Assembly: GCA_049297675.1 (NCBI GenBank) | Contig: JBAQUS010000017.1 | Span: forward strand, 7,456 to 71,455 | Length of the DNA stretch: 64,000 nucleotides | DNA from: Minisyncoccia bacterium | GTDB lineage: Bacteria > Patescibacteriota > Minisyncoccia > Phycocordibacterales > DATDWN01 | Direction of reading: 5' to 3' | Shown here: piece by piece, positions 2,599 through 33,460 of the stretch | How the letters are laid out: each line of letters opens with the position of its first letter | Numbering within the stretch: position 1 is the stretch's first letter | Position numbers and translations under genes: made by a program | Notes under the pieces: generated by a model | Database searches by the model: none | Told to the model about the DNA's origin: nothing | The model's input: the letters and a program-made list of their open reading frames with translations, nothing else

Positions 2599-2670
2599 AC
2601 ACGAATGAAAACGAAATACGCGAATAAAATACAGATGCATCTTATTCGTGTCATTCGCATGAATTCGTAG
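2599..2670. repeat. intergenic CGAAT-array element, copy 1 (three CGAAT pentamers at ~10-bp phase, a central AGATGCATCT palindrome, then three ATTCG pentamers)
   Basis: Read directly. Related copies sit at 13424-13500 and 33371-33460. Confidence 0.65.
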
Positions 2671-2687
2671 ATTAGTGTCGCACTTTT

Positions 2688-3353
2688 ATGCAAGTTGTTC
2701 CAGCCATAATTCCAAAAAATAGAGAGCAGATGGAGGAGGAGATAAAAAAAGTCTCTAGTTTTGCTCACTTAGTTCAGATAGATATATCTGACGGTATTTT
2801 CACTCAATATAAAACTTGGCCATACAACGGACAGGATACGGAATATTTTGAAAAGCTAAAAAAAGAAGAGATAGGTTTGCCTAGGTGGGAAGAAGTGGAG
2901 TATGAGGTTCATCTCATGATAAAAAATCCAGAGGAGGTTGTTTTGGATTGGATACATGCCGGGGTTTCTACTATCATAGCTCACATAGAATCTACAGAAA
3001 ATTTTCAGAAAGTTATTGATATCTGCAGAGAAAACGAAGTTTTAGTTGGCGTGGCAATAAAACCCAGTACAGATATAGAGAAGATTAAAACTCTTGTGGA
3101 AAAAGTGGATTTTATACAAGTTATGGGTTCGGATTTACTCGGAAAACATGGTACAAAACTGGAAGACAGAGCCATTCTGATGATAAAAGAAATTCAAAAG
3201 TTGTATCCAAACAAAACTATAGCAGTTGATATAGGAGTTAATCAGACGACGGAAGATATCCTCAAAAATGCTGGTGCAACTAAACTTGTTTCTGGCGGGG
3301 CAATTCTCGAATCAGCAAATCCACAAGAAGTTTATAGTGACTTATCTGAATAG
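2688..3353 (+). CDS. rpe: ribulose-phosphate 3-epimerase family protein (divergent)
   Basis: HLMIKNPEE and IDISDGIF TIM-barrel motifs resemble Rpe. The DGHF metal-ligand His is replaced by Ile. Confidence 0.6.
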   Translation: MQVVPAIIPKNREQMEEEIKKVSSFAHLVQIDISDGIFTQYKTWPYNGQDTEYFEKLKKEEIGLPRWEEVEYEVHLMIKNPEEVVLDWIHAGVSTIIAHIESTENFQKVIDICRENEVLVGVAIKPSTDIEKIKTLVEKVDFIQVMGSDLLGKHGTKLEDRAILMIKEIQKLYPNKTIAVDIGVNQTTEDILKNAGATKLVSGGAILESANPQEVYSDLSE

Positions 3354-3596
3354 CTTCAAGCAATTTTATTTATAGAGCACGCATAAATCTCTGGTGAGAT
3401 TTTGCTCTCGCTCGGCAATCAAGAAAACAATCTTTCTCACTCCAGAGCCTTCTCGCGAACTCGCCAGGATTACCTGTGCTCAAACAACGCTTCAGGCTTC
3501 TTCTCGTTCGTCGTTATTTTCTAATTGCCTCCGCAGTCTCTATAAATAACATTGCTTGAAGTTTTTCCAGGGTATATAATTTATGTTAAGAAATAT

Positions 3597-4496
3597 ATGA
3601 GTGGCAACTTAAACGACGAAAAAATAAAATTTCTTGAAGATAAGGCCAAAGAAATTAGAATTTCTATAATAGAAATGCTTGTCTCGGCTGGCTCAGGGCA
3701 CTCTGCGGGACCTCTTGGTATGGCCGATATTTTTACAGCACTCTATTTTTACATACTTCGCCATGATCCAAAAAAGCCGGACTGGGAAAAAAGAGACAGA
3801 CTCATCCTCTCAAACGGTCACATAAATCCAGTTTTGTATGCCACTATGGCTCATGCAGGGTATTTTCCACTTAAAGAACTTTTGACACTTCGAAAGTTTG
3901 GTACACGTCTTCAGGGTCATCCTCATAGAGAGTACTTACCAATGCTCGAGACTTCTTCTGGACCACTTGGATGTGGACTTTCGCAGGCGGTTGGTATGGC
4001 TCTAGCAGATAGGATGAGCGTAGGAAAATCATCAGACAAGTTTTTCTATGCTCTCTTAAGTGATGGTGAGTTGGACGAAGGCAATAGTTGGGAGGCTATA
4101 ATGCTTGCGAACAAATACAAACTTGGGAATCTTATCGCCATAGTTGATCGAAACAATATTCAGATTGATGGTTTTACGGATGATGTTATGCCACTTGGGA
4201 ATGTTGCAAAAAAATTTGAAAGTTTTGGTTGGCATACTGAAGAAGTAGATGGACATAATTTTGCAAATATTATTGCGGCAGTTGGCAGAGCCCAAGCTGT
4301 CTATAATGCTCCGTCAGTTTTGGTGGCTAGAACCATCCCGGGAAAGGGCGTTTCTTTCATGGAAAAGGATTTTAAATGGCACGGCTCTCCTCCGGGGACA
4401 GAAATGAAAGGTGAGCCACCAAAGGATGAACAGGCGAAGATAGCTTTGCATGATTTACGTACATTAAAAGGCCAAATAACCGGCGAACACGAATAA
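3597..4496 (+). CDS. tktA: transketolase, N-terminal (thiamine-diphosphate-binding) subunit
   Basis: GHSAGPLGMADIFTALYF and SNGH motifs. The ATG at 3597 is preferred over the upstream TTG. Confidence 0.9.
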   Translation: MSGNLNDEKIKFLEDKAKEIRISIIEMLVSAGSGHSAGPLGMADIFTALYFYILRHDPKKPDWEKRDRLILSNGHINPVLYATMAHAGYFPLKELLTLRKFGTRLQGHPHREYLPMLETSSGPLGCGLSQAVGMALADRMSVGKSSDKFFYALLSDGELDEGNSWEAIMLANKYKLGNLIAIVDRNNIQIDGFTDDVMPLGNVAKKFESFGWHTEEVDGHNFANIIAAVGRAQAVYNAPSVLVARTIPGKGVSFMEKDFKWHGSPPGTEMKGEPPKDEQAKIALHDLRTLKGQITGEHE

Positions 4497-4497
4497 T

Positions 4498-4719
4498 ATG
4501 GAAACAATTAATGTTTTTTTTAGGATAGCACTATTGATAATAACGCCAGTTATTTTTTTTCATATAATAAAATATTTTTCATCAAAATTTGACGATTATT
4601 TAAAAAAAACAAAATCAGGTAGAATAATTAGATTAATAATAATTCCGATTGTGTTAACTATTTATTTATATTTCTTATTCATGATTATTATTACTATTTA
4701 TTCATTAAGAAATCTATGA
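4498..4719 (+). CDS. possible small hydrophobic protein (73 aa) in a ~20%-GC spacer between the transketolase halves
   Basis: ORF with two predicted TM stretches. The extreme AT bias means it may be non-coding. Confidence 0.25.
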   Translation: METINVFFRIALLIITPVIFFHIIKYFSSKFDDYLKKTKSGRIIRLIIIPIVLTIYLYFLFMIIITIYSLRNL

Positions 4720-5714
4720 TTAATACTTCTCAAAAACTAAATCCTAATCTTTTTGATAAGAGGGTAGAACAAGTGCCAATTCGTCAAGGTTTTGGACAAG
4801 GACTTTTGGAAGTGGGGGAGAAAAATCCAAATGTTGTTGGGCTTTGCGCGGATTTGACAGAGTCAACCAAAATGAATTTGTTTGCACAGAAATTTCCAGA
4901 GAGATTTGTCCAAGTCGGTGTTGCGGAGCAAAACCTGGCAGCCGTAGCCTCGGGAATGTCTGCCATGGGCAAGATTCCATATATATCGAGCTACGCCATG
5001 TTTTCTCCTGGAAGAAACTGGGAGCAGATTCGCACAACTATTTGCTACAACGATAGGGCAGTTATTATCGCAGGTAGCCACGCTGGCATAAGTGTCGGTC
5101 CTGACGGTGGAACACATCAAGCTATAGAGGATATTGCCATAACCCGAGTAATTCCAAACATGATAGTTATTTCTCCCTGCGATGCTATTGAGGCTAAAAA
5201 GGCCACAATAGCCGCGGCCGATTTAAAAAAACCAGTTTATATTCGTTTAGCTCGCGAAAAAACTCCCGTTATTACTACGAACGATACTCCTTTTGAAATA
5301 GGTAAAGCTCAGCTTTTGTTTGGCGAGGAAAGTAAAAAAGCTGATGTTGGGATTATTGCTACGGGAGCACTAGTATATAAGGCATTCAAAGTAGCTGATG
5401 AATTAGAAAAAGAAGGAACTAGTGTAAAAGTTTTAAATATCTCCACAATAAAACCACTTGATAGTGAAGCGGTGATAAATTTAGCCAAAACATGTGGTGC
5501 TATCGTAACTGTTGAAGAGCATCAAATAATCGGTGGTCTCGGAGGAGCGGTTTCAGAATGTTTAGCACAAAATTTTCATGTTCCGCAAGAATTTGTTGGA
5601 GTCAAAGATAAGTTTGGTCAGTCAGGAACACAAGATGAACTTCTAGAGCATTATGGAATGGGTGAGAAGGATATAAAAGAGGCGTGCAAGAAAGTGATGA
5701 GTAGGAAAATTTAG
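4716..5714 (+). CDS. tktB: transketolase, C-terminal (pyrimidine-binding) subunit
   Basis: Transketolase central and C-terminal domain motifs (GEDGPTHQ-like GPDGGTHQ). Confidence 0.9.
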   Translation: MINTSQKLNPNLFDKRVEQVPIRQGFGQGLLEVGEKNPNVVGLCADLTESTKMNLFAQKFPERFVQVGVAEQNLAAVASGMSAMGKIPYISSYAMFSPGRNWEQIRTTICYNDRAVIIAGSHAGISVGPDGGTHQAIEDIAITRVIPNMIVISPCDAIEAKKATIAAADLKKPVYIRLAREKTPVITTNDTPFEIGKAQLLFGEESKKADVGIIATGALVYKAFKVADELEKEGTSVKVLNISTIKPLDSEAVINLAKTCGAIVTVEEHQIIGGLGGAVSECLAQNFHVPQEFVGVKDKFGQSGTQDELLEHYGMGEKDIKEACKKVMSRKI

Positions 5715-5724
5715 AAAACTATTT

Positions 5725-6717
5725 TTAAATTTTTCTCACCCTATAATCCTCTGGGGCTTTATCTAAAAATTCTTGGATTTTTTCCTGAGCTAGAAGCCCT
5801 TCTTGGGCACCGATTTTCTGAACGACTGACATGGAATTTATTCCAGCCCAACGCATAGCTTCTCCAAAGGGTACCCCTTTGGCGAGGGCTGAGACTATTG
5901 TGGAGGCGTATGCATCCCCGGCACCAGTTCTCTCAAAGGGTTTGTGTGGGTAAATAGGCATAAACCAAAAATCTTCCGTATTACTTGCCTCATATGCATA
6001 AGCACCATTTATGCCATCTGTTATGACTACTGTTTCAGGTCCCAATTCAGACATTTTTTTAAGTAAAACTTTCAAATCCCTTGAACTTTCCCCTAGTATC
6101 TTTTGAGCTTCCTCTACGTTACAGAAAAAAATATCAGTATTTTTATATATTTTACTCAGCGCTTCTGTTCCAAACTTCATCTGGAATGTTCCCGGTTGAA
6201 AGGCCAGTTTAGTTTCGGGATTATTTTCAATGAATTCAGCTATTTGATCATGAAAATTTAAAGAATTTTCTCCAAGAGAAGAAAGATAAATCCACCTTGG
6301 GTGATTAATATCACCGAGGTCATAGTTAAATGTATCATGCTTTACTAATATTGTTCTGTCGACGTCGTACCACAAAACATAGTGATAGTTTGTGTGTTTT
6401 CCAGGGTCAACTCTTATGAAACTGACATCAACATTATTTTTTCTAAGTTCTTCAATATCTTCCTTTCCATTTTGATCGTCACCAATATATGCAAGAAGAG
6501 CAGAGTTTAATCCGAGTCGACTTGCTGAGACAGAAGCGTTGCTACTATTTCCAACTGCTTTTACAATCGTCACTGACTCGAATGGAATTTTATCGCCGAA
6601 ATTTACACAAAGTTTGCAGTTTTCGTTATCCTCATCGCATCTCACCTCAGCTTCTTTGAGTCGAATAAATGCATCAGTCGTAATATCTCCAATAGCCAAA
6701 AAATCTAGCTTTGTCAT
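5725..6717 (-). CDS. PfkB-family carbohydrate kinase (ribokinase-like)
   Basis: N-terminal GDITTD and a C-terminal GAGDAY anion-hole motif. Confidence 0.85.
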   Translation of the reverse strand: MTKLDFLAIGDITTDAFIRLKEAEVRCDEDNENCKLCVNFGDKIPFESVTIVKAVGNSSNASVSASRLGLNSALLAYIGDDQNGKEDIEELRKNNVDVSFIRVDPGKHTNYHYVLWYDVDRTILVKHDTFNYDLGDINHPRWIYLSSLGENSLNFHDQIAEFIENNPETKLAFQPGTFQMKFGTEALSKIYKNTDIFFCNVEEAQKILGESSRDLKVLLKKMSELGPETVVITDGINGAYAYEASNTEDFWFMPIYPHKPFERTGAGDAYASTIVSALAKGVPFGEAMRWAGINSMSVVQKIGAQEGLLAQEKIQEFLDKAPEDYRVRKI

Positions 6718-6754
6718 AAGGAAATTATATCACTTCTCTTTAATGCATGTAAGT

Positions 6755-6775
6755 TGTGGAAGACGGTCTTCCACA
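6755..6775. repeat. REP family 1 palindrome TGTGGAAGAC-G-GTCTTCCACA
   Basis: 10-bp perfect arms around a central G. Confidence 0.85.
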
Positions 6776-6788
6776 GTAGTATGTATTT

Positions 6789-7445
6789 ATGGAAAGAAAA
6801 ATACCATTGTTTGAGGGGGAATGCTTTCATATATATAACAGAGGTGTGGATAAAAGAAAAATTTTCTTAGATTCACACGACTATAACAGATTTATAATTT
6901 TACTTTACCTTTGTAACTCAAACTTACCTGTTGATCTTCAAAAAATTTTTCGAGAAGGACGAACATTTAATGAGATATTTAGTATTGATAGAGGCGATCG
7001 ACTTATTGACATAGGCGCTTGGGTGTTGATGCCAAATCACTTTCATCTATTGGCCAGGCAGAATTGTAGTGATGGATTGTCTGTTTTTATGAGAAAACTA
7101 TGTACCGGATACTCAAATTACTTTAATCAAAAAAATAATAGATTAGGAGCGCTTTTTCAGGGCAGATTTAAATCTGAACATGCATCTGATGATAGATATT
7201 TAAAGTATTTATTTTCCTATATTCACTTAAATCCAGTTAAACTTATTCCAGGGGAGGAAAATTGGAAGGAGGTTGGTATAAAAAATCCAGATAATGCATC
7301 TAAATTCATAAATAATTATGAATACTCCAGTCTACATGACTACAGAAATGAGACCTTGTTCAGTAGTCTAGTAAATAAGGAACTATTTAGTAGTATCTCT
7401 GACGATTTAAGGGATATGGTTGAAAGCGTGAATAATTGGCTATAA
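6789..7445 (+). CDS. REP-associated tyrosine transposase (RAYT; IS200-like Y1 HUH transposase), copy 1
   Basis: FHIYNRG, AWVLMPNHFHLL (HuH) and YIHLNPVK (catalytic Tyr) motifs, matching the E. coli RAYT pattern. Confidence 0.8.
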   Translation: MERKIPLFEGECFHIYNRGVDKRKIFLDSHDYNRFIILLYLCNSNLPVDLQKIFREGRTFNEIFSIDRGDRLIDIGAWVLMPNHFHLLARQNCSDGLSVFMRKLCTGYSNYFNQKNNRLGALFQGRFKSEHASDDRYLKYLFSYIHLNPVKLIPGEENWKEVGIKNPDNASKFINNYEYSSLHDYRNETLFSSLVNKELFSSISDDLRDMVESVNNWL

Positions 7446-7453
7446 ATAAGCTT

Positions 7454-7476
7454 TTGTGGAAGACGGTCTTCCACAA
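7454..7476. repeat. REP family 1 palindrome TTGTGGAAGAC-G-GTCTTCCACAA
   Basis: 11-bp perfect arms, in the same orientation as 6755-6775. Confidence 0.85.
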
Positions 7477-7511
7477 TTGGCGCAGGGATTATTTATTGGT
7501 ACAATTAAGTT

Positions 7512-8390
7512 ATGAAATTATTAAGAGAAAGTGTTTTTGAAGCAAAAGAGAGAAAAGTCGCTATTGGACATTTCAATATTTCAAACATTGAAGGTTTCTG
7601 GGGGGTTTTCAGAGGTGCGCAGTCACTTGGTGTACCAATAATAATAGGAGTATCTGAAAGTGAGAGGGATTTTATTGGAGTTAATCAAGTCTCTGCTTTG
7701 GTAAAAGCTACCAGAGAGCAGTATGATTATCCGATTTTTCTAAATGCTGATCACACCTATTCATTTGAAAGGGTCAAAGAAGCCATTGATACCGGATTTG
7801 ATTCTGTTATTTTCGATGGGGCGAAACTTTCTTTTGAGGAAAATGTAAAAATTGCAAAGCAGTGCGTTCAGTACGCCAAGGAGTATACAAAGAAAACTGG
7901 CAGGGAAGTTTTGGTTGAAGGGGAGTTGGGTTTTATTGGTCAGTCTTCGAAGATATTGGACGAAGTTCCAGAAGGAGTAATCCTCGACGAAAAATCTTTA
8001 ACTGACCCAGAAAAGGCAAAAGAGTTTGTAGTAGAAACTGGTGTAGACATGCTTGCCCCAGCAGTGGGGAATTTCCACGGTATGCTTCGGGGCGGGATCG
8101 ATCCTAAGCTAAATATAGATAGAATTAGAGCCATTTACGAGAGTACAAATGTTCCATTGGTTCTCCATGGTGGGTCAGGTAACTCAGAAGATGATTTTAG
8201 AGATGGAATAGCAAATGGTATTTCTATAATTCACATAAACACAGAAATACGTATAGCTTACATAGATGCCTTGAGGAAATTTCTAGAAGAAAATCCAGAC
8301 GAGGTAGCCCCATATAAATTTTTGAAGTCTTCAGTTGAGGCAATACAAAAAGTTGTTACTGAGAAACTACAATTATTCAATAACCTTTAA
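7512..8390 (+). CDS. fba: fructose-bisphosphate aldolase, class II
   Basis: AIGHFNISN and LVLHGGSG motifs of class II ketose-bisphosphate aldolases. Confidence 0.9.
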   Translation: MKLLRESVFEAKERKVAIGHFNISNIEGFWGVFRGAQSLGVPIIIGVSESERDFIGVNQVSALVKATREQYDYPIFLNADHTYSFERVKEAIDTGFDSVIFDGAKLSFEENVKIAKQCVQYAKEYTKKTGREVLVEGELGFIGQSSKILDEVPEGVILDEKSLTDPEKAKEFVVETGVDMLAPAVGNFHGMLRGGIDPKLNIDRIRAIYESTNVPLVLHGGSGNSEDDFRDGIANGISIIHINTEIRIAYIDALRKFLEENPDEVAPYKFLKSSVEAIQKVVTEKLQLFNNL

Positions 8391-8428
8391 CTATTGATTT
8401 TTATGGATGATTTGATATACTTCTTCGC

Positions 8429-9070
8429 ATGTTGATTTTGGAAGCACAAAAGAGAGATTTAAAGCTCGACAATAATGCACTGAGAAAGGAGGGTAAAATG
8501 CCTGCTGTTTTTTATGGTAAAAAAACTACCTCAACGCCCATTGTTTTTTTGGAGAAAGATTTTTTAAAGATTTGGCATAAAGCGGGGGAATCAGGTGTTG
8601 TTTCAATAAAAACTCCAGAGGGAGTGGTGGAGACCCTTATTCACGACGTTAATATTGACCCAGTCTCTGACAAGCCAAGACACGCTGATTTTTATGTCTT
8701 CGAAAAGGGAAAGAAACTGGAAGTAGATGTGCCACTTGAATTTATTGGTATCTCTCCGGCCGTAAAGGATCTTGGTGGAATATTGGTTAAAGCTCTGCAT
8801 GAAATAAAAATTAGTTCTGATCCAACAAGTATTCCGCATGATATAAAAGTAGATATTTCAAGTCTAACTGGACTGGATAGTGTTATTTTGGCAGGAGACT
8901 TGAAACTTCCTTCAGGTGTAACTTTGGTTGAGAGAGGAGAGGAGGTTGTTGCGGCGATTACTCAATATAAAGAAGAAATTCCAGAAGTTGCTCCAGTTGA
9001 CCTATCTACTATTGAAGTGGAGAAGAAGGGCAAGAAAGAAGAAGAAGCTCCAGTAGAGGAGGCAAAGTAG
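8429..9070 (+). CDS. rplY: 50S ribosomal protein L25 (Ctc form)
   Basis: N-terminal LEAQKRD...GKMPAVFYG L25 signature with an acidic C-terminal extension. Confidence 0.85.
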   Translation: MLILEAQKRDLKLDNNALRKEGKMPAVFYGKKTTSTPIVFLEKDFLKIWHKAGESGVVSIKTPEGVVETLIHDVNIDPVSDKPRHADFYVFEKGKKLEVDVPLEFIGISPAVKDLGGILVKALHEIKISSDPTSIPHDIKVDISSLTGLDSVILAGDLKLPSGVTLVERGEEVVAAITQYKEEIPEVAPVDLSTIEVEKKGKKEEEAPVEEAK

Positions 9071-9106
9071 CTATAATTGTAACCAATAGAAGTTTAACAC
9101 GTCTAC

Positions 9107-10474
9107 GTGTATAATATATTTATGATAGTAATGTTCAAACAGTCTTTTCTGTTGTCAATTTTATTTTTATTTTTGGTCTTTCAATTCCAGACGGTTTTTG
9201 CCTTGTCTCCGGAAGAGCAGGAAGCAGTTTGGAGGGAAGAACTGGCTCAAACAGAGGCCGATATTGCCAAGTGGCAGTCAATATTAGATAACACAAAAGC
9301 CAACACCAAATCTTTACAGCAAGAAGCTACTAAACTGAACGCCAAAATAAACCAGGCAAAAGCACTGATAAAAAAGAAAAATATTGCTATTGCTCAGCTT
9401 GAACAAGACATAGCTAAAAAAAATCATAGAATTAAAACTTTGGAGCAGAAAATTGAGGACGGTCATACTTCCTTAGCTCAGATTCTTAGAAAAACAAATG
9501 AAATTGACAGTTTCAGTTTACCCGAAGTTATTTTAGGAAACAAAAATATTTCAGAATTTTTCAGTGATATAGATACATTCCAGTCTGTAAATAGATCACT
9601 TCAAGATTTATTTGTCGAGGTCAGAGCTACAAAAAATCTAACACAAAAAGAGAAAGCTGAATTAGACAAACAAAAAGACAAAGAGGCTGATACGAAAGCT
9701 GCAGCTGAAGTTCAAAAAAAACAAGTGGAGGCTGATGAGAAAGAAAAGCAGTATCTTATTAAGGTAAATAAGACAAATGAGAAGACGTATACAGAGGTTA
9801 TTTCCGAGAGACAAAAAAAAGCTGGTGAGATAAGAGCTAAGCTTTTTAAGCTAGCAGGAGGTAGTAATCCTATTCCATTCGGTGATGCACTAGCTTTTGC
9901 TCAGACGGCATCGCTTAAAACAGGAGTTTCTCCATCTCTACTCCTTGCAGTTTTGACTCAAGAATCAAGTCTAGGGGCAAACGTTGGAAAATGTTATCTA
10001 ACAGATACAAACACAGGCGCCGGGGTCAATACAAGTGGTACAAAAACTTTTCCAAATGTTATGAAACCTACTAGAGATGTATCTCCTTTTTTAGAGATAA
10101 CTAATAAACTGGGTTTTAGTTATCTTAAAACTGTAGTTTCTTGTCCTATTGCAGGGGTGGCAGGATATGGTGGAGCAATGGGTCCAGCACAATTTATTCC
10201 TTCAACATGGAAACTTTTTGAAGACAGATTGCGTAATACTTTGGGTCGTGAACCAAATCCTTGGAATCCAGAGGATGCATTTTCAGCTTCGTCATTTTAC
10301 TTGGGAGACCTGGGAGCAGGAAGTGGCACATATAGCTCTGAAATTCGAGCTGCATGTAAATACTATGGTTCAGGCGGATCCACTTGTTCGTACGGAAGAA
10401 GTGTAATGAATTTAAAAAATAGTATTCAAGCAGATATAGATTATTTAGAAGAATACGGAGTTTCTAGAAGGTAA
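9107..10474 (+). CDS. secreted coiled-coil protein with a C-terminal lytic-transglycosylase-like (SLT) domain
   Basis: Signal peptide, a long coiled coil, and QESS plus GAMGPAQFIPSTW motifs resembling SLT catalytic motifs. Confidence 0.6.
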   Translation: MYNIFMIVMFKQSFLLSILFLFLVFQFQTVFALSPEEQEAVWREELAQTEADIAKWQSILDNTKANTKSLQQEATKLNAKINQAKALIKKKNIAIAQLEQDIAKKNHRIKTLEQKIEDGHTSLAQILRKTNEIDSFSLPEVILGNKNISEFFSDIDTFQSVNRSLQDLFVEVRATKNLTQKEKAELDKQKDKEADTKAAAEVQKKQVEADEKEKQYLIKVNKTNEKTYTEVISERQKKAGEIRAKLFKLAGGSNPIPFGDALAFAQTASLKTGVSPSLLLAVLTQESSLGANVGKCYLTDTNTGAGVNTSGTKTFPNVMKPTRDVSPFLEITNKLGFSYLKTVVSCPIAGVAGYGGAMGPAQFIPSTWKLFEDRLRNTLGREPNPWNPEDAFSASSFYLGDLGAGSGTYSSEIRAACKYYGSGGSTCSYGRSVMNLKNSIQADIDYLEEYGVSRR

Positions 10475-10593
10475 GTTCAGTTTATGAAATTCTTAACCGA
10501 AGTAAAGTTGGTGTTGTTTTTTCACGACTTACTTATTGACAAAAAATTATATTATGATACCGTACTTTGAAAAGCAGGTTTTCATAAGTATTA

Positions 10594-13083: not shown

Positions 13084-13153
13084 ATATCTCTTGCAGGATG
13101 GTTAGATTTTTGGTAGCATACCGCTAGTTAGGTTTTATGTAATAATTAGTAAA

Positions 13154-13423
13154 ATGAAGAAAGATATACACCCTAAAAACTATAGGCCAGTTCTATTTAT
13201 AGACAACTCAAACAACGCAGAGTTTGTTATTTCCTCTGCTGTAGAAACAAAAGAAACTCTCAAAGCAAAAAACGGCAAAGAGTATCCTGTTTTTAGAGTT
13301 GAAGTTACCTCAGCTAGTCATCCTTTTTATACAGGTAACGAAAAAATGTTAGATTCTGCAGGTAGAGCAGAAAAGTTTAAGGCAAAGGTAGCCAAGGCTA
13401 CAAAGAAACAAGCTCAACACTAA
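13154..13423 (+). CDS. rpmE: 50S ribosomal protein L31, type B (no zinc ribbon)
   Basis: MKKDIHP...HPFYTG signature with no Cys ligands. Confidence 0.85.
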   Translation: MKKDIHPKNYRPVLFIDNSNNAEFVISSAVETKETLKAKNGKEYPVFRVEVTSASHPFYTGNEKMLDSAGRAEKFKAKVAKATKKQAQH

Positions 13424-13500
13424 TACACGAATTATCCCGAATGACACGAATAGAAGAATTCACTAGTGTCATTTGTTTTTATTCGTAATTCGCGTCGTGT
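13424..13500. repeat. intergenic CGAAT-array element, copy 2
   Basis: ACACGAAT, CCGAAT, ACACGAAT, then ATTCGTAATTCGCG. It fills the whole rpmE-prfA spacer. Confidence 0.65.
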
Positions 13501-13502
13501 TT

Positions 13503-14483
13503 ATGGATATAGAAAAATTTTCAAATAACTCAAAAACTTCTTACCTAGCGGGGGAGTATAAAAAACTCCTAAAACAGGAGGAGGAGACTAAAATAATGAT
13601 TGAGAGTGACCCGACTCTTAGAGATTTAGCCTACTCAGAATTTGAGTCAATTAAAATTCAGAAAGAAATTCTTCTAAAACAGATGGAAGATATTTTTAGT
13701 GAATACGACAAAGAAACAGAGGAGTTTCCAAACGAAGTTATTTTGGAAGTTAGGGCTGGAGCCGGTGGGGAAGAGGCTGCACTTTTCGCTGAGGAACTTG
13801 CCAAAATGTACACTACTTATGCTAAAAATCATGGTTGGGGAGTATACGTTGTTGACGAATCCTGGAGCAGTACAGGGGGCTATAAGGAAGCTTCATTTGA
13901 AATACGTGGCAGAGAAGTATATAAAAGTTTAAGGTTTGAAACTGGTGTTCATAGAGTTCAGAGAGTTCCTGCTACTGAGAAAAATGGTAGAGTTCATACA
14001 TCGACTGCTACGGTTGCTGTTCTTCCTGTACGAAAGAGGACAAAAATAGTTATAAATCCAGCTGACATTGAAATAGAAACTTCACGCTCAGGTGGGGCTG
14101 GTGGACAAAATGTCAATAAAATAGAATCTGCCGTCAGAATTATTCACAAACCAACTGGTCTTGATGTCCGTTCAACTGCTGAGAGAAGTCAGTTGAAAAA
14201 TAAAGAGAGAGCTATGACTATTTTGACTGCCAAGATTCAAATGCTTAAAGATGAAGAGGAGGCGAAGAAATACTCTAGTGATCGCAAGTCTCAGATTGGC
14301 ACAGCTGACAGGTCGGAGAAGATTCGCACATACAATATTTTGCAAGACCGCATAACTGATCACAGAATAAAACAATCTTGGCACAATATAGAGAAAATTC
14401 TCCTAGGTGGTATAGAACCGATTCTTTCTGTCATGGCAAATTTTGATGGAAAGTCTGTAGAAGGGGATGATTCTGATGATTGA
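13503..14483 (+). CDS. prfA: peptide chain release factor 1
   Basis: GGQ motif (SGGAGGQNVNK). Start set at the ATG at 13503 rather than the ATG at 13473, which lies inside the repeat. Confidence 0.9.
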   Translation: MDIEKFSNNSKTSYLAGEYKKLLKQEEETKIMIESDPTLRDLAYSEFESIKIQKEILLKQMEDIFSEYDKETEEFPNEVILEVRAGAGGEEAALFAEELAKMYTTYAKNHGWGVYVVDESWSSTGGYKEASFEIRGREVYKSLRFETGVHRVQRVPATEKNGRVHTSTATVAVLPVRKRTKIVINPADIEIETSRSGGAGGQNVNKIESAVRIIHKPTGLDVRSTAERSQLKNKERAMTILTAKIQMLKDEEEAKKYSSDRKSQIGTADRSEKIRTYNILQDRITDHRIKQSWHNIEKILLGGIEPILSVMANFDGKSVEGDDSDD

Positions 14484-22543: not shown

Positions 22544-22639
22544 GGGTAATTTTGTGGCTAGGAATATTGAATAAATGCTTGTTTGTGAGAGTAGAATTTG
22601 CTATAATTATCAGGTTAAAATGACAAAAAAATAATAAAA

Positions 22640-24942: not shown

Positions 24943-24963
24943 GATATTTATGTTAAATAATAA

Positions 24964-25390: not shown

Positions 25391-25392
25391 AA

Positions 25393-26673: not shown

Positions 26674-26743
26674 TATTTAAAGAGCATTATATACTTGACA
26701 TATCAAGCATTTGATTTTAAGATAAATGTTGGAGGGGGTACCT

Positions 26744-26992
26744 ATGAGTTTTTCGCTTGGAAATCGAGAAAGCCTGCCAAAGTGCCGGACTTGCCAGATT
26801 CCGATTTGGCAAAAACAGGCACCAGAGCTTGATCAAAACTTGTGCCAGTCGTGTAATCTTTTTCTGACTGGTCTAAGAAAACTTGAGAGTTCTGAACTTG
26901 AGAGGCAACTCTTAAGTCGAGATTGGCAAGACGGACTCTTTGCTGTATTTTGTGAGGAATACAAAAGGAGAGGTCTGAGACTTCCACAGTAG
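26744..26992 (+). CDS. hypothetical zinc-ribbon protein (82 aa), GC-elevated cassette
   Basis: CRTC...CQSC Cys pairs, a GGAGGG RBS, and a TTGACA-N17-TAAGAT promoter upstream. Confidence 0.4.
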   Translation: MSFSLGNRESLPKCRTCQIPIWQKQAPELDQNLCQSCNLFLTGLRKLESSELERQLLSRDWQDGLFAVFCEEYKRRGLRLPQ

Positions 26993-27005
26993 TTCACATC
27001 CCGAA

Positions 27006-27052
27006 ACGCGGGGTCTGTGAGCCCCGCGTCGAGATTTACTCGGCGTTTTTTT
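27006..27052 (+). terminator. intrinsic terminator ACGCGGGG...CCCCGCGT plus T7 run
   Basis: Strong GC hairpin followed by TTTTTTT. The T-run overlaps the dnaE stop on the opposite strand. Confidence 0.55.
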
Positions 27053-30000
27053 ATTCCATCAGTCTAATTTTATCAATAAGTACAGACTTTTCACCGTTTC
27101 TAAGTGACACTGAGCCTTTTATAACCACACAATTCTCAACAGCAAACAGTCCACTACTTTCTTCTGTCAGTATTTTTGGAAAAGCTACGGCTTCGATCGA
27201 GTCCGATAAGTCTGAGACTTTCAAAAAATACATTTTCTCCCCCTTTTTGGTCATGACAGGACGAAGTTCCTCTATGATTCCCCCAAAAACAACTTCATCT
27301 TTGTCTTTTTTACTTTCTTTTATTTTTTTTATATTTAAATTTTTATTTTCAAGTTTATCTTTGTAACTATCAAGAGGATGACCTGAAATATAAAGTCCTA
27401 AAAGTTCTTTCTCCCACATGAGTTTGTCTCCCTGGGTAGTTTTTCCATTAAGTTCGAGTTTTATTTCAGTGGCTTTTATTTCTGTACCAAAGAAAAGAGA
27501 AGTTTGGTCTCCCATGTCCTGTCTTTCTTCTCTACTAAACTGAAGCATCTTATCAATATTTGATAGAAGCATTGATCGATCATCGCTTCCACCAGCTAGG
27601 GAGTCCATCGCTCCAGCCTTTATGAGAGATTCAAGAGATTTTTTGTTCAAATTTTTATCTTTTACTCTTCTTAGAAAATCTGAAAGGGAAGTGAACTCTC
27701 CGTTTTTCTTTCTTTCCTCGACAATTGAGTGAGCGATACCTTCGCCAAAGTTTTTGATGGTTGAAAGTCCGAATCTAATAGTGTCCGGGATAGAAGTATG
27801 AAGTTCGATGTTCGATTTATTCACGCCGAAACCCTCAAATGATTTGTTTACATCTGGTGGTAGAACCGGAATTCCCATTCTTTTACATTCGTTTATAACC
27901 TCCGCCACCGTCTCTATATTTCCGGATTCTGCAGTCAGAACTGCTGACATATATATTGCAGGGAAGTTGGCCTTCATGTAAGCGGTCTGGTATGCAACTT
28001 TACCGTAGCTAACAGCGTGGGCCATATTAAAACCATAACCTTGGAAGGGCTCAAATAAATTCCAAAGTTCTTCTGCTTTTTTCTCTGACATGCCACCGTG
28101 TTTCTGACTACCCTCAACGAACTTTATATGTTGCTTCTTCATTTCTTCTGGGATTTTCTTTCCGACAGCTTTTCGAAATTTATCTACTTCTCCCCAGTCG
28201 TATCCTGCCACCTCAATAGCAGTGTAAAGAAGGTCGTCTTGGTAAACAAGTACCCCAAATGTTTTGTCTAGAAAGTTCTTCATTTTTGGATGCAAATACA
28301 CAATTGGTTTTTTCCCGTGTTTTCTGGCTATGTACTCGTTTATGTTATCCATCGGTCCTGGACGGTAAAGTGCTACCATAACGTTTATGTCATGAATGAC
28401 AGTTGGTTTTAGGTCTTTCAAGGCTCTAGTCATACCGTCGCCGTTTAATTGGAAAAGTCCTATTGTTTCTCCGCGAGCCAGCATGTCAAAAGTCTTTTTA
28501 TCATCCACAGGAACATTTTCAATATCAATTTTAATTCCCTCTATTTTTTCCACTCTTTTGACACTATCTGCCAAAATAGAAAGATTACGAATCCCAAGAA
28601 AGTCGAATTTCAGTAATCCCACGCCATCCTCACCGACTGAATGCATATCATATTGTGTGATGATCTTATGCTGTCCGTTTTCTCCACCTTTTGTATCGTA
28701 TTGAAGTGGTACATAGTCGATAAGTGGTGTTGGTGCCATAACCACTCCCGCGGCATGAACTGATATATGCCTTGCACATCCTTCGATTTTCTTAGCCATA
28801 TCAATAATTTTTTTGACATCAGGCTCTTCTTTATATCTTCGAGAAAGTTCTGGCTCTTCTTTCAGTGCTCTGTCAATTGTCATGGGGAAGCCTTGCTTAC
28901 CAAGAGGAATAAGCTTGGATATTGAGTCTCCGAGACTGTATGGAAATCCTAAAGCACGTGTGACATCTCGAACTGCCCCTCTAGCGGCCATTGTTCCAAA
29001 TGTTCCTATTTGTGCCACTTTGTCTTCACCATATTTTTTCTTGGCATATTCAATAACCTCATCGCGTCTATTATCTGCAAAGTCCATATCGATGTCCGGT
29101 GCTGATGGTCTGTAAGGATTCAGAAATCTCTCAAATGGCAAGTTGTATTCAAGTGGGTTTACGTTTGTAATTCCAGATAGGAAAGTAACTAAAGATCCAG
29201 CCACAGAGCCTCTAATAGTTGTTAAAATTCCGTTTTCATGAGCAAAATTTAAAAGATCGGAAACCACTAGAAAGTATGGCGCATAACCCTTATCTTTAAT
29301 TATTTTGAGCTCGTATTCCATTCTCTCCACAATCTCTTTAGTTTTTTCCAGCTTTCTCTTTTTTATTCCTTCCACGGTAATTCTTCGGAGTTCATCATCG
29401 TAAGAAAGTCCACTTTCCACAACGTAGTTGGGTAGCGACCATTTGCCTATCTCGATTTCCAGGTTACATCTCTCAACTATTTTCTCAATATTTTCTATTG
29501 CCTCTGGTATGTTTTTAAAAAATTCTAAAGCATCACTTTGGCTAATGAACGAAAAATTTTCTTCTTTAAATTCCAACTTCTCATCGTTTTGAGATGCAAC
29601 TGCTATGAGAGTTTGCCTAGCTTCACGATCCTCAGGGTGGAGATAATAAACATCATGTGATGCAACCAGAGGCGTGTTGGTTTTTTTTGCAAACTCAACA
29701 ACTTTTTGCATTGTTTCCTCGTGCCCCTTCATTTCTGGATGATGTGTAATTTCGAGAAAAAAATTTTCTTCACTATTCTTATTAAAAACGCTTTTATACC
29801 AATCCAATCTTTCTAGTGCTTGGTTCTGGTTTGCAAGTTTAATAGACAGAACGATATCACTCGAAAAAGATGGGGCAATAGCGATAAGCCCATCAGAGTA
29901 CTTTTCTAGTAGTTCGTTATCAATTCTCGGCTTATAATAAAAGCCTTCGAGGTGAGCATAAGTTACGAGCTTTATGAGATTTTTGTATCCAATATCATTT

Positions 30001-30278
30001 TTGGCTAGAAGGACCAGGCGATATCTTTCTTTATCAATTGACTGCTTATCTTTTCTTCCTCTTATTGCTACATAAGCGTCGATTCCAATAATTGGTTTTA
30101 CACCCTTTTTCTTACATTGAATGTAAAACTCAATTGCTCCATAGAGATTACAGTTATCCGTCAAAGCCAAGGCAGACATGTCATTTTTCTTTGCCTCGTC
30201 AATCAAATCTTTAATTTTCGGCAAGGCATTAAGAAGAGAGTAGTGGCTATGTGTATGGAGATGGGTAAATTTTGACAT
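27051..30278 (-). CDS. dnaE: DNA polymerase III alpha subunit
   Basis: PHP domain (HLHTHSHYS) and polymerase core motifs. Start placed at MSKFTHLHTHS, which has a TATAAT 6 nt upstream. Confidence 0.95.
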   Translation of the reverse strand: MSKFTHLHTHSHYSLLNALPKIKDLIDEAKKNDMSALALTDNCNLYGAIEFYIQCKKKGVKPIIGIDAYVAIRGRKDKQSIDKERYRLVLLAKNDIGYKNLIKLVTYAHLEGFYYKPRIDNELLEKYSDGLIAIAPSFSSDIVLSIKLANQNQALERLDWYKSVFNKNSEENFFLEITHHPEMKGHEETMQKVVEFAKKTNTPLVASHDVYYLHPEDREARQTLIAVASQNDEKLEFKEENFSFISQSDALEFFKNIPEAIENIEKIVERCNLEIEIGKWSLPNYVVESGLSYDDELRRITVEGIKKRKLEKTKEIVERMEYELKIIKDKGYAPYFLVVSDLLNFAHENGILTTIRGSVAGSLVTFLSGITNVNPLEYNLPFERFLNPYRPSAPDIDMDFADNRRDEVIEYAKKKYGEDKVAQIGTFGTMAARGAVRDVTRALGFPYSLGDSISKLIPLGKQGFPMTIDRALKEEPELSRRYKEEPDVKKIIDMAKKIEGCARHISVHAAGVVMAPTPLIDYVPLQYDTKGGENGQHKIITQYDMHSVGEDGVGLLKFDFLGIRNLSILADSVKRVEKIEGIKIDIENVPVDDKKTFDMLARGETIGLFQLNGDGMTRALKDLKPTVIHDINVMVALYRPGPMDNINEYIARKHGKKPIVYLHPKMKNFLDKTFGVLVYQDDLLYTAIEVAGYDWGEVDKFRKAVGKKIPEEMKKQHIKFVEGSQKHGGMSEKKAEELWNLFEPFQGYGFNMAHAVSYGKVAYQTAYMKANFPAIYMSAVLTAESGNIETVAEVINECKRMGIPVLPPDVNKSFEGFGVNKSNIELHTSIPDTIRFGLSTIKNFGEGIAHSIVEERKKNGEFTSLSDFLRRVKDKNLNKKSLESLIKAGAMDSLAGGSDDRSMLLSNIDKMLQFSREERQDMGDQTSLFFGTEIKATEIKLELNGKTTQGDKLMWEKELLGLYISGHPLDSYKDKLENKNLNIKKIKESKKDKDEVVFGGIIEELRPVMTKKGEKMYFLKVSDLSDSIEAVAFPKILTEESSGLFAVENCVVIKGSVSLRNGEKSVLIDKIRLME

Positions 30279-30369
30279 AAAAACATTATAGCATTTCAAA
30301 TTGTTTTCCTTCCTGATTATACTGTTGACTATAAGTAATTTTATTGTTATTTTGTTCTCGGAGGTTTGC

Positions 30370-30819
30370 ATGAGTTTACCGATGGTCGAAGGAAGAGAGC
30401 TTCAATGGTCGTCACTCACAGATTTTGAAAGGGCGTGTCTCGTCCAAATCGGTGAGGAGGTGGTGAGTCCGAATCCAAACACGCACCTCATCAAGATTCT
30501 CTGTGATGCGGTGCGTCTTGCGAGGCAGTGTGCGGACAATCCACCACTCATTTCCATCGAGGATGATCAAACGAGGCTCAGGAAAATCGCACTTAAGCAG
30601 ATAACCAGCGTAGTCAACAAATATCGACGGAAGGACGGATCTGGTCGTCTCCTTCCAGAGTATGATTGGGGAGGTCAGAGAAACTTCCTCATCCGTGACA
30701 TTTTAGAGACTGCTCTGAATGTTGCATTCTGCATTGAGGGTGCGTCAACCGGATTTCATTCCCGAGATTCCAATCGGGTTTATCATGACAGTCCAGTCAA
30801 CAACGCCCCTCGGGGCTAA
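30370..30819 (+). CDS. hypothetical protein (149 aa), GC-elevated cassette divergent from dnaE
   Basis: GGAGG RBS, a TTGACT-N17-TATTTT promoter, and a GGGGTCAC...GTGACCCC hairpin downstream. No recognised domain. Confidence 0.4.
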   Translation: MSLPMVEGRELQWSSLTDFERACLVQIGEEVVSPNPNTHLIKILCDAVRLARQCADNPPLISIEDDQTRLRKIALKQITSVVNKYRRKDGSGRLLPEYDWGGQRNFLIRDILETALNVAFCIEGASTGFHSRDSNRVYHDSPVNNAPRG

Positions 30820-30877
30820 ACACTGGGGTCACCGCCAAAAGCGAGTGACCCCTCACCATATGTGTTAAAATTTTGTT

Positions 30878-31519
30878 ATGAATTATGTTGTCGGTATAGA
30901 TGAAGTTGGAAGGGGACCACTGGCTGGGCCTGTCACTGTCTGTCTGGTTTGTTGCGAAGATAGATTATATAGAAAGTTAAAGCAAAATAGAAGTTTACCC
31001 AAATTAGGTCAAGACAGCAAAAAAATCTCAGAAAAAAATCGCCAGAAATACTCCTTGACCCTGAAGTCCCTAATGTCAAAGACGGTCTTTGACATTTCCA
31101 AAGGGGACCCCTTTGGGAATGAGATTGGAATGTGGTATGTAGTTAATCATGTTTCAAACAGAGTAATTGACCAAAAGGGAATTTCTTTTGCGATTGAAGG
31201 GGCTATTGCCACAGGAATTAAGGGGTTAAATTTAGATGCAAAAAATTGCATAATTTTGCTTGACGGAGGATTAAGAGTGCCGAAAAATTTTAAACAGAAA
31301 ACAATAATAAAGGGCGACGAGAGGGAAAAAATAATTAGCTGGGCTTCGATTTTGGCAAAAGTTTCGAGGGATGATCTGATGATAAATTTGAGTAGGAAGT
31401 ACTCATTTTATGGTTTTGATAAACACAAAGGCTATGGCACCAAACACCACAGAGAAATGATCCTGGAATTTGGCTTAAGCAAAATTCACCGCAAAACCTT
31501 CTGCAAAAAATTGATTTAG
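30878..31519 (+). CDS. rnhB: ribonuclease HII
   Basis: GIDEVGRGPLAGPV active-site motif. Confidence 0.9.
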   Translation: MNYVVGIDEVGRGPLAGPVTVCLVCCEDRLYRKLKQNRSLPKLGQDSKKISEKNRQKYSLTLKSLMSKTVFDISKGDPFGNEIGMWYVVNHVSNRVIDQKGISFAIEGAIATGIKGLNLDAKNCIILLDGGLRVPKNFKQKTIIKGDEREKIISWASILAKVSRDDLMINLSRKYSFYGFDKHKGYGTKHHREMILEFGLSKIHRKTFCKKLI

Positions 31520-31605
31520 TGTTGTCAATTTGCATTTATTAATTGTCTTGAAATCTTATTTTACAAGAATGTTAATTTATGATAATGTCAAATCGGAGGT
31601 AGGTC

Positions 31606-32046
31606 ATGTCCCACTTTTCCGGAGCAGTAATCTGGGAGGAGCGGGATGGAGAAATCTACCTGCTCATTCAAGAGTTTGAGACAACTAACCCTCGTTTTCG
31701 AATAAAGAAAGGAAAAAAGTTTCCTGGTGGGAGAAGTGTACCTGGAGAGTCTCCAGAACAGACCCTACACAGGGAGCTTCTCGAGGAGTTGTGGGTTTGT
31801 GTGAGTGGTGAGATGGTACAGATTGCTGTGGTTCCTTCAAACAGTAATCACACAATGTATTTTTTTCTAATCCATATCTCACAACTTAAGGGGGACATTT
31901 GGAATGAGGTTGTCGATGATGGACAGTCGAAAATTCAGCCTCTAGTTTCAGTAAGAGCTAATAAAGTCGGAAGTCTACCAGGCTTTCTTGATTCACATCA
32001 ACCTGCCTTGTTGGTTACACTTCGTCGCTTTGGACTCGTGGGATAG
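31606..32046 (+). CDS. Nudix hydrolase (GC-elevated cassette)
   Basis: Nudix box GGRSVPGESPEQTLHRELLEELWV and a GGAGG RBS. Confidence 0.7.
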   Translation: MSHFSGAVIWEERDGEIYLLIQEFETTNPRFRIKKGKKFPGGRSVPGESPEQTLHRELLEELWVCVSGEMVQIAVVPSNSNHTMYFFLIHISQLKGDIWNEVVDDGQSKIQPLVSVRANKVGSLPGFLDSHQPALLVTLRRFGLVG

Positions 32047-32159
32047 GACTCTCAATCGTTCTATTCCACGAGAAATACCCCGACACTGTCGTGGTTTTTT
32101 TATAGATAAACTGTTCTAAATTTGTAATTTCTTAGCAAACATGTTAGTCTTTTCACACT

Positions 32160-32378
32160 ATGGTAGTACGAATGCGACATACAAAAAGTCAGCGAAACAG
32201 AACGAGATCACATCATCGTTTAGACAAACCTGCCATAACTTTGGACAAAAACTCAAACGTTCCACATCTTCGTCACAGAGCTTCACTCGTGACAGGACAA
32301 TACAAAGGCAGAATGGTCATTGATGTTCAAGCTAAGATTGCTAAGAAAGCTAAGAAGAATAAAAAAGAAGGTAGATAA
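32160..32378 (+). CDS. rpmF: 50S ribosomal protein L32
   Basis: MVVRMRHTKSQRNRTRSHHRL...PHLRHR L32 signature. Confidence 0.8.
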   Translation: MVVRMRHTKSQRNRTRSHHRLDKPAITLDKNSNVPHLRHRASLVTGQYKGRMVIDVQAKIAKKAKKNKKEGR

Positions 32379-32479
32379 GAGGAATAGTACATAAATAGAT
32401 AGGATTTGGTTTTGGGGACTATGCAAATTTTTTGTTATTTGATATCCTGTAACTAGTTACTAAATGCTAGACACAAAAA

Positions 32480-33370
32480 ATGGCAAACAGGCACCTTTCC
32501 AGATCGATAGTTCTTCAATCACTCTTTGAGTGGGATTTTTCGTCCAAAAATCCTGCAGATTCAGACGAAATTTTTGATCGTAATCTGAAAGAGTTCGCTC
32601 CTGGTGCTGGGGATAAGCCTTTCATGGACAATCTCATGAAGGGTGTAATGGATAAAAGAAGAGATATAGATTTAATTATAGAAAAAGCCGCACCTGATTG
32701 GCCAATAGATAAGATAAGTGTCATAGACAGAAATATTTTAAGGATCGGTCTTTATGAACTTTTGTTTTCAGACAGAAAAGAAGTTCCTCCAAAAGTTGCT
32801 ATAAACGAGGCTATCGAGCTTTCTAAAACATTCGGTGGTGATACATCTAGCAAGTTCGTAAATGGAGTTTTGGGAGCAGTTTACAAAGAGCTTGGTGAAC
32901 CAGGCAAGGAACAAGTTTCAAAGGTTAAAAATAAAGGTGAAGGTGCTGTTGTGACAAATGAATACCTTGGTGGAGCAGTGGTCTTTGCCAGGGATGGAGA
33001 GGAGGTTTACCTTGCTCTGGTACATGATGTTTTTGGAAGGTGGACCCTATCTAAGGGTCATATTGATGATAATACAAATCAAATTGATGGGATCAAGGTC
33101 ATAATAAAGACTGAACTTGGTTTAAATATTGAAGTGAAAGAAAAGCTAGGTGAAAATGAGTATGTTGCTTATCATCCTGAAAAAGGAAAGATAAGAAAAC
33201 ATGTCATATATTATTTGGCAGAGTCTGCGTTTGTTGATATAACAAGAGAGATAAAAGGTGGTCTTGATGATGCAAAATGGTTTAAGCTCGCTGACATACT
33301 TGACCTTAATTTTTATGGTGATATATTGCCGATAGTTACGAAAGCGATTAATATATTGTTAAAGAAGTAA
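32480..33370 (+). CDS. nusB: NusB antitermination factor fused to a C-terminal Nudix-like domain
   Basis: N-terminal NusB helices (RSIVLQSLFEWDF, ILRIGLYELLF). The C-terminal ~140 aa has a Nudix-like GHIDD...ELGL segment. Confidence 0.75.
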   Translation: MANRHLSRSIVLQSLFEWDFSSKNPADSDEIFDRNLKEFAPGAGDKPFMDNLMKGVMDKRRDIDLIIEKAAPDWPIDKISVIDRNILRIGLYELLFSDRKEVPPKVAINEAIELSKTFGGDTSSKFVNGVLGAVYKELGEPGKEQVSKVKNKGEGAVVTNEYLGGAVVFARDGEEVYLALVHDVFGRWTLSKGHIDDNTNQIDGIKVIIKTELGLNIEVKEKLGENEYVAYHPEKGKIRKHVIYYLAESAFVDITREIKGGLDDAKWFKLADILDLNFYGDILPIVTKAINILLKK

Positions 33371-33460
33371 TCGCGATACGAATCTACGAATACATACGAA
33401 TAGTCAATGCTCTCACAAGTAGAGAAAAGACAAATATTCGCATTATTCGCATAAATTCGT
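33371..33460. repeat. intergenic CGAAT-array element, copy 3
   Basis: ACGAAT x3 at 9-10 bp phase, then ATTCGCATTATTCGCATAAATTCGTA. Confidence 0.65.

Follow-up and report, generated by a model that had tools for sequence, protein, structure and literature searches.

The best described counterparts of the elements considered here are the repetitive extragenic palindromic (REP) sequences and REPINs with their RAYT transposases, and miniature inverted-repeat transposable elements (MITEs) with an autonomous partner. The elements themselves are inverted arrays of the pentamer CGAAT in three intergenic spacers of a 64,000-nucleotide stretch (the window) of contig JBAQUS010000017.1, which comes from a metagenome-assembled genome (MAG) of the Minisyncoccia (Patescibacteria). 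They lie between rpiB and an rpe-like gene (copy 1), between the type-B L31 gene rpmE and prfA (copy 2), and between a nusB fusion gene and rnc (copy 3), and each consists of three to four (A)CGAAT units, a variable centre, and three to four ATTCG units. The account that we favour, with slightly better than even confidence, is that they are gene-less copies of a REP- or MITE-like palindromic mobile repeat with the GxxExxY nuclease (PF13366, PDDEXK_3) as its partner. A link to this nuclease, whose gene is found in the loop of related palindromes, together with insertion polymorphism between relatives, points to a mobile palindromic repeat, a reading that was absent from an earlier, sequence-only reading of the same DNA.

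Like REP/REPIN-RAYT systems, the CGAAT elements are short imperfect intergenic palindromes, many per genome and often transcribed within operons. Their copy number is lineage-specific, and the repeat flanks or encloses a small gene of nuclease type, which is far outnumbered by gene-less copies. Unlike those systems, they have a PD-(D/E)XK protein as partner rather than a Y1 HUH transposase, each of their arms repeats a heptamer in tandem where those systems have a single 20–40-nt palindrome with a GTAG head, and their core unit is conserved across phyla. A RAYT was considered as partner and rejected, since the PF01797 gene of the window is flanked by ATGCCAAGGGGCACCCTTGGCAT and not by CGAAT arrays, and the genes that CGAAT arms flank belong to PF13366.

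With a length of 60–120 bp, no open reading frame (ORF) in gene-less copies, inverted arms, and ends conserved within subfamilies, the elements also resemble MITEs and foldback elements (Correia, RUP, and BOX; eukaryotic foldback transposons). They share with these the insertion polymorphism between relatives and the existence of longer relatives in which the same arms carry a gene. Unlike these, they have shown no target-site duplication, their cargo is something other than a recognised transposase, and their arms are made of 2–6 internal repeats of variable number and spacing. In how they work the elements are most like REP/REPIN-RAYT or a MITE with an autonomous partner, although they fall outside the REP-RAYT group and fit the MITE definition incompletely.

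Two further systems offer partial parallels. The intervening sequences of 23S rRNA carry a small, patchily distributed ORF in the long-range stem of inverted flanks, inside conserved transcription units. The likeness lies in a patchily distributed small gene enclosed by the stem of inverted flanks; the CGAAT elements differ in lying between protein-coding genes rather than in rRNA helices and in having another cargo family. The inverted terminal repeats of parvoviruses, as in adeno-associated virus, carry tandem Rep-binding tetranucleotides in a hairpin stem. Here the analogy is one of principle only, a stem of short tandem motifs serving as multimeric nuclease sites, and these repeats are the telomeres of linear single-stranded DNA viruses with an HUH Rep protein.

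The elements and their distribution

The pentamer CGAAT is rarer than expected across the window (46 copies vs. about 70 expected), and tandem CGAAT or ATTCG pairs occur only at the three elements. In 300 Markov simulations the largest cluster of units within 90 bp was usually 3 and once 5, as against the 5, 5, and 6 observed, and the expectation of the two-arm pattern in shuffled sequence was 0.00. A covariance model built from Patescibacteria copies found exactly three sites in the window (E ≤ 1.6e-15), with the next match at E = 0.1. The three clusters are far beyond chance. The common inverted CGAAT/ATTCG architecture reported for three spacers by the sequence-only reading is present at each of the places named, and its calls of the flanking genes are right.

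Further copies were sought in a species-representative genome collection and in IMG/VR with the pattern CGAAT-N2-5-CGAAT-N10-40-ATTCG-N4-ATTCG. This strict pattern gave at least 120 matches in species-representative genomes, from at least 8 phyla, and matched 49 viral contigs. The matches listed were dominated by Chloroflexota, Planctomycetota, Bacteroidota, Acidobacteriota, Verrucomicrobiota, and many Patescibacteria lineages; they included cultured Bacteroidota (Flavobacterium and Mucilaginibacter) and a few members of the Desulfobacterota, Nitrospirota, Armatimonadota, and Spirochaetia. About 80% of the matches have units additional to those demanded by the pattern, so they are not chance matches. 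No description of the repeat or of its link to GxxExxY was found in the searchable literature.

The window genome holds four copies in about 84 kb, the fourth lying beyond the window end. Copy 1 is 83% identical both to this fourth copy and to an element at an unrelated locus of another MAG (L082), in which its first 18 nt are identical; the right ends of copy 1 (CATGAATTCGTAGATTAGTGTCGCAC) and of the fourth copy (CATGAATTCGTAGATTAGTATCGCAC) differ by one substitution. Several copies per 8 kb occur at loci L020 and L092. An alignment of copies from different classes of Patescibacteria runs over their whole length and shows conserved ends and unit variants specific to their position. The sequence-only reading had supposed a true family with hairpin potential, and had staked this on there being more than three copies and structural covariation; copies are abundant elsewhere, and compensatory changes connect the arms.

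Tandem gene pairs flank 56 copies, convergent pairs 18, and divergent pairs 12. When 383 flanking proteins were clustered all against all, no recurrent neighbouring gene or regulon emerged, the sole signals being a few pilB-type ATPases in Patescibacteria and the rpmE/prfA pair, which appeared twice. Among individual contexts, two near-identical CGAAT hairpins stand on either side of rpmI (L35) in a Saccharibacteria MAG (L041, 5544–5947), rpsS has a complete element on one side and another CGAAT array on the other in a Zambryskibacteria MAG (L015, 1328–1815), and one copy in L054 is about 500 nt upstream of a 23S gene.

Association with GxxExxY nuclease genes

In a Prevotella MAG (L092) and a Planctomycetota MAG (L096), both reached through arrays that had no nearby partner array, the arms were found about 390 bp apart, enclosing a PF13366 gene (E = 9e-40 and 2e-26, respectively). 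PF13366 genes nested between arms were seen in L092, L096, L205, L248, L261, and L262, the last two being further long contigs with this layout, and in a member of the Chloroflexia (L039) two complete hairpins flank such a gene. The nested gene sits precisely in the loop: its start codon adjoins one arm, and its final codons extend into the other. The cargo between split arms is essentially only GxxExxY. Within 8 kb of L092 there are three empty copies and one gene-bearing copy, with nearly identical arms. An orthologous GxxExxY gene occupies the same locus in two Prevotella species, where the arms have drifted. An assignment of the L248-type protein to Patescibacteria was rejected, its relatives being Syntrophaceae-like.

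To examine the association from the side of the protein, 80 PF13366 loci were drawn independently from metagenomes. Inverted tandem arrays of some 5-mer flank 22 of 76 PF13366 genes, compared with 4 of 668 controls, and at least two exact CGAAT/ATTCG units within 130 nt were found at 14 of the 80 loci, compared with 10 of 767 background windows. The units at these loci include CACGAAT, CACGGAT, CACAGAT, ACAGGAT, CACGGAG, and others. The association of the arrays with GxxExxY genes is strong, statistically as well as structurally.

The GxxExxY protein has about 125 amino acids and an invariant catalytic D...E-x-K, and at least some 8,000 cluster representatives were found at E ≤ 1e-5. Its AlphaFold model (predicted local distance difference test score, 91.8) has a minimal PD-(D/E)XK fold. 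A Foldseek search with this model gave only weak, generic PD-(D/E)XK matches (Cas4 SSO0001, lambda exonuclease, tRNA-splicing endonuclease, and Hjc), and a search by sequence gave no match to a solved structure in the PDB. A 2012 survey of the PD-(D/E)XK superfamily gave the function of PDDEXK_3 as unknown.

Insertion and decay between relatives

Four relatives of the window genome (L251 to L254, with PrfA 89–78% identical) are syntenic with it over gapA-rpiB-rpe-tkt...L25-SLT-rpmE-prfA-rpsB-tsf. A few bases are shared by rpiB and rpe in L253 and L254, whereas in the window the two genes are separated by a 105-nt spacer that holds the element. Because these genes overlap in the relatives and the element is found only in the window, copy 1 is an insertion. 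L252 has a 98-aa ORF between rpiB and rpe. Its small extra ORFs, of 98, 83, and 109 aa (1809–2105, 1101–1352, and 3771–4100, respectively), sit between gapA, rpiB, rpe, and two transketolase genes, in spacers that are empty or element-bearing in other genomes.

The rpmE/prfA spacer has turned over as well. L251 holds a further-decayed relative of the element (GAAT/ATTC units with a 7-nt period); a long hairpin unrelated to it is present instead in L252 and L254, and a short one resembling a terminator in L253. No arrays were found in 77 kb of the syntenic relatives. In a more distant Patescibacterium (L034, PrfA 56% identical) the order is rpmE, a canonical terminator, a CGAAT element, and prfA; we read this copy as an independent insertion into one of few available spacers. 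A parallel case comes from Prevotella, in which the spacer between a DUF4924 gene and an epimerase gene measures 2–4 nt in L255 and L256 and 87 nt, with the hairpin, in L092. Presence/absence polymorphism at orthologous sites was thus seen in two lineages, Minisyncoccia and Prevotella, and the comparisons show both gain, by insertion into intergenic spacers, and subsequent loss or decay of members of the family.

Anatomy of the arms

The covariance model and inspection of the units give the following parts for the three window elements and for the fourth copy of the same genome. The elements have no strand; coordinates are those of the window, except in the last line.

2590–2683, copy 1, whole element (103 bits, E = 3.8e-21), with the rpiB stop (2580–2582) upstream and the ATG of the rpe-like gene (2688) downstream
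2590–2625, copy 1, left arm: GACAC, a degenerate CCAAT at 2593, CGAAT at 2602, CGAAA at 2612, CGAAT at 2621
2626–2643, copy 1, centre or loop: AAAATACAGATGCATCTT
2644–2683, copy 1, right arm: ATTCG at 2644, 2653, and 2663, a degenerate ATTAG at 2671, and GTGTC(GCAC)
13416–13501, copy 2, whole element (79 bits, E = 1.1e-15), overlapping the rpmE stop (13421–13423) and ending just 5' of the prfA ATG (13503)
13416–13451, copy 2, left arm: ACACTAAT, then CGAAT at 13428, 13438, and 13447
13471–13501, copy 2, right arm: ATTTG at 13471, ATTCG at 13481 and 13488, then CGTCGTGT
33372–33473, copy 3, whole element (78 bits, E = 1.6e-15), with the stop of the nusB fusion (33368–33370) upstream and the rnc ATG (33482) downstream
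33372–33401, copy 3, left arm: CGCGATA, then CGAAT at 33379, 33387, and 33397
33402–33435, copy 3, centre: 34 nt, variable
33436–33473, copy 3, right arm: ATTCG at 33436, 33445, and 33455, then TATATTGGCATCGG
L259 3690–3827, fourth copy, beyond the window end: between hisS and an RNase H-like gene, with the hisS stop inside its first unit

The start of prfA is the ATG at 13503, as in the database protein, the mechanical ORF start (TTG at 13473) being too far upstream; that of rnc is probably the ATG at 33482, the mechanical start (TTG at 33464) again being too far upstream.

Across the family the unit is nCA-CGAAT-(T/G)-A, of the same composition in both arms. Each arm has 2–6 units, and the centres are unrelated between copies, as they are among the three of the window. 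In most phyla the outermost unit is preceded by (G/A)CCA, and Patescibacteria copies have the ends CGAYRC(Y)AAT...ATT(R)GYRTCG, kept across classes. In copy 1 a closing stem, GACAC/GTGTC, lies outside the degenerate outer unit pair CCAAT/ATTAG. Copy 3 begins with CGCGATA and ends with GGCATCG, and its end CGATAC is common to the Patescibacteria copies in L015, L028, L044, L077, and L080. The right arm of copy 2 is partly decayed, with ATTTG at 13471 and one 7-nt spacing. These closing ends revise the limits given by the sequence-only reading, in which each element ran from the upstream stop codon to the downstream start: the spacers were placed correctly, but the elements are longer than stated, closing in the conserved ends CGAYRC...GYRTCG.

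Spacing was the other point of revision. The units had been described as phased at 10 bp, so as to lie on one face of the helix. Window spacings are 8–10 bp plus one of 7, and the family has a mode of 9 bp (320 of 466 spacings) with a range of 7–13 bp; the search pattern fixed one 9-bp spacing per element, and the mode is still 9 when that spacing is left out. With a 9-bp mode, rather than 10.5, and a spread of 7–13 bp, the units are not helically phased.

Each arm is a true mirror image of the other, a symmetry compatible with the formation of a hairpin or cruciform, or with symmetric copying. In 19 arms-only sequences 85.6% of arm positions pair, a pairing score reached by none of 500 shuffles, and slid registers drop to 29–45% pairing. 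The closing stem shows compensatory changes (one pair, for example, is A-U in 11, C-G in 5, and G-C in 2), and register-specific complementarity extends to the variable positions.

Weighing the explanations

If the elements are gene-less copies of a mobile repeat, the CACGAAT-type heptamer arrays would be multimeric recognition sites for the GxxExxY nuclease, which could read them on duplex, hairpin, or cruciform DNA. Acting in trans, the nuclease would spread or maintain copies that lack the gene, much as RAYT does for REP/REPIN or a transposase for MITEs. The window copies would then be tolerated insertions into operon spacers; when transcribed they would fold into imperfect hairpins, and mRNA processing or stability could be altered as a by-product. 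Nothing points to a dedicated regulatory role for rpe, prfA, or rnc. A bolder step, to the view that heptamer-array palindromes and GxxExxY make up a previously unrecognised class of mobile element, parallel to REPIN-RAYT and spread over at least 8 phyla including Patescibacteria and phages, is taken here only tentatively, and we would not yet bet on it.

Several observations weigh against the mobile-repeat account. No GxxExxY gene was found in the window or in about 20 kb beyond its ends, nor in the Patescibacteria loci examined, and the viral contigs yielded no confirmed PF13366 gene. Exact-unit arrays are missing from about 70% of PF13366 genes. Co-evolution of protein and repeat was considered and rejected, since proteins that are 80% identical have either CACGAAT or CACGGAT arms. 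No target-site duplication is recognisable at rpiB/rpe or at the Prevotella junction, although at both the genomes compared are too diverged for base-level mapping. We know of no transposition mechanism for a minimal PD-(D/E)XK protein, and to our knowledge no transposase activity has been demonstrated for GxxExxY. The order of events may also run either way, with hairpins that were there first receiving the gene or with a gene cassette giving rise to the hairpins.

The first of these orders of events belongs to an explanation in which the direction is reversed: the hairpins would be an independent host or selfish repeat, and GxxExxY a homing-type selfish gene that inserts into their loops, not the agent that spreads the gene-less copies. 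The exact placement of the gene between the arms would suit such a gene, as would the empty and occupied copies with near-identical arms in one genome, the ratio of about 190 empty to 3 occupied among pattern-selected loci, and the carriage of only empty copies by phages. Insertion sequences IS1397 and IS621 target REP sequences, which is comparable to homing into hairpin loops. Left unexplained would be the spread and cross-phylum conservation of the empty hairpins, and in Prevotella the orthologous GxxExxY gene stayed put as its arms drifted, with no visible homing. We consider this explanation improbable.

A hairpin acting at the level of RNA is a weightier alternative, though unlikely in our estimate. 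It would be a partial terminator, a site for processing by RNase III or another enzyme, or a 3' stabiliser, tuning the relative expression of its neighbours as E. coli REP sequences do, and any mobile origin would be secondary. The window hairpins fold better than shuffled sequence (sense-strand z = −1.9 to −4.6), and the arm pairing, the compensatory changes in the closing stem, and the shuffling result all accord with a structure. Most copies lie between co-directional or convergent genes. Phage copies add to this: in IMG/VR they were found immediately downstream of a major head or head-protease gene, or in the gap that separates the protease gene from the major head gene (for example in L129, L130, L141, L152, L164, and L169), and a contig of 67% GC (L137) has an AT-rich copy about 530 nt downstream of its major head gene. 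A second copy in L137 directly follows a 151-aa ORF that was taken for a tail gene, though without a PHROG match. The position after major head genes is a classic place for an expression-setting hairpin. Clustering by phage head genes is the strongest argument for a selected effect at the RNA level, and to that extent counts against the mobile-repeat account, but the bias could also reflect few insertion-tolerant spacers.

Against an RNA-level function stand the details of strand and sequence. No sense-strand G·U bias was found; antisense folds better in all three window copies (in copy 1, for example, −40.8 vs. −28.7 kcal/mol), and among 39 gene-oriented copies the antisense strand was better in 22 and the sense strand in 14. 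A correctly placed T-run is present in 26 of 193 family copies (13%), the same rate as for the inverse arrangement. A layout of T-run upstream and A-run downstream had been an impression from few copies and was unsupported by the count over 193. No + strand terminator was called at any of the three window copies, and in L034 a canonical terminator is already present upstream of the copy. Twelve copies lie between divergent genes. Primary sequence is kept across phyla and in genomes of 33–67% GC, which a plain structural hairpin would not need, and the element is missing from close relatives with the same operons. Rfam 15 offers no family for it: at the gathering threshold only a tRNA was matched in the window, and in E-value mode copy 3 and 13 loci gave only noise matches to miRNA-precursor hairpins.

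For the sequence-only reading this means that its observation is confirmed and its interpretation is partly supported. The terminator role that it had entertained found no canonical terminator at the three copies, and no promoter either: a search for sigma-70 promoters (−35/−10 with a 16–18-nt spacer, + strand) returned only copy 3, whose right arm has the match TTCGCA-17-TATATT (9 of 12), not above chance and with counts within shuffle expectation. Nothing specific ties the elements to rnc, as had been suggested from the position of copy 3 in its leader. The idea of a dedicated regulatory site fares no better, in that the elements are missing in syntenic relatives, where the same genes overlap or have other hairpins.

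As an operator or architectural array on duplex DNA, finally, the units would be bound cooperatively on both arms by a host protein that regulates or insulates the adjacent genes. The strict conservation of the unit nCA-CGAAT-K-A, identical in both arms, is what such a site would show, and so are the 2–6 units per arm at fairly regular spacing, the symmetric layout with no strand preference, and the persistence of the unit across very different GC contents, including 67% GC phages. The spacing, with its 9-bp mode and 7–13 bp range, does not place the units on one helical face, and the downstream genes are functionally unrelated, with no regulator gene recurring nearby. Eighteen copies lie in convergent spacers, where there is no promoter to regulate, and copies are gained, lost, and decayed between close relatives. 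The register-specific complementarity at non-unit positions would be unneeded in a simple array of sites. There seems little likelihood of this explanation being the right one.

Other palindromes and features of the window

A 206-aa PF01797 (Y1_Tnp, IS200/RAYT-like) gene is located at 63175–63795 on the − strand. Palindromes of ATGCCAAGGGGCACCCTTGGCAT surround it at 62991–63070 and 63829–63845, as an inverted pair on one side and a single copy on the other. The arrangement is that of a classical REP-RAYT system, here in a Patescibacteria genome, and is unrelated to the CGAAT elements. A second foldback lies at 716–943, upstream of gapA (943–1965), with GTGTGAAA four times, a loop, and TTTCAC(AC) three times. 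It has the architecture of the CGAAT elements with a different unit; its spacer folds at −46 kcal/mol and scores a weak 18 bits against the CGAAT model. An identical hairpin, TTGTGGAAGACGGTCTTCCACAA, is found at 6717–6789 and 7445–7512, flanking a gene at 6789–7445. Two very long, near-perfect AT-rich hairpins (−73 and −91 kcal/mol) occupy large intergenic spacers at 38033–38325 and 45321–45619.

Directly downstream of rnc, at 34244–35257, is a gene with RhuM-family and Fic/DOC domains, likely a mobile or toxin-type insertion among housekeeping genes. Loss of the Shine-Dalgarno motif downstream of the elements was considered and set aside as nothing special, the motif being present in only 5 of 45 window genes. 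A TAnnnT box is found 6–9 nt before the ATG in many window genes, and this suggests that leaderless or near-leaderless mRNAs are widespread in the window genome.

Significance

If the mobile-repeat account is correct, it would give a testable role to GxxExxY, which ranks among the commonest families of small uncharacterised proteins in Bacteroidota, Chloroflexota, Planctomycetota, and their relatives, and would add a cross-phylum intergenic repeat family that is new to Rfam and to the searchable literature. Annotators should then not take AT-rich hairpins of this kind for gene-specific regulators of rpe, prfA, or rnc, and an explanation would be needed for those that follow phage major head genes. 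For the Patescibacteria themselves, it would mean that even tiny genomes carry proliferating palindromic DNA inside their core operons.

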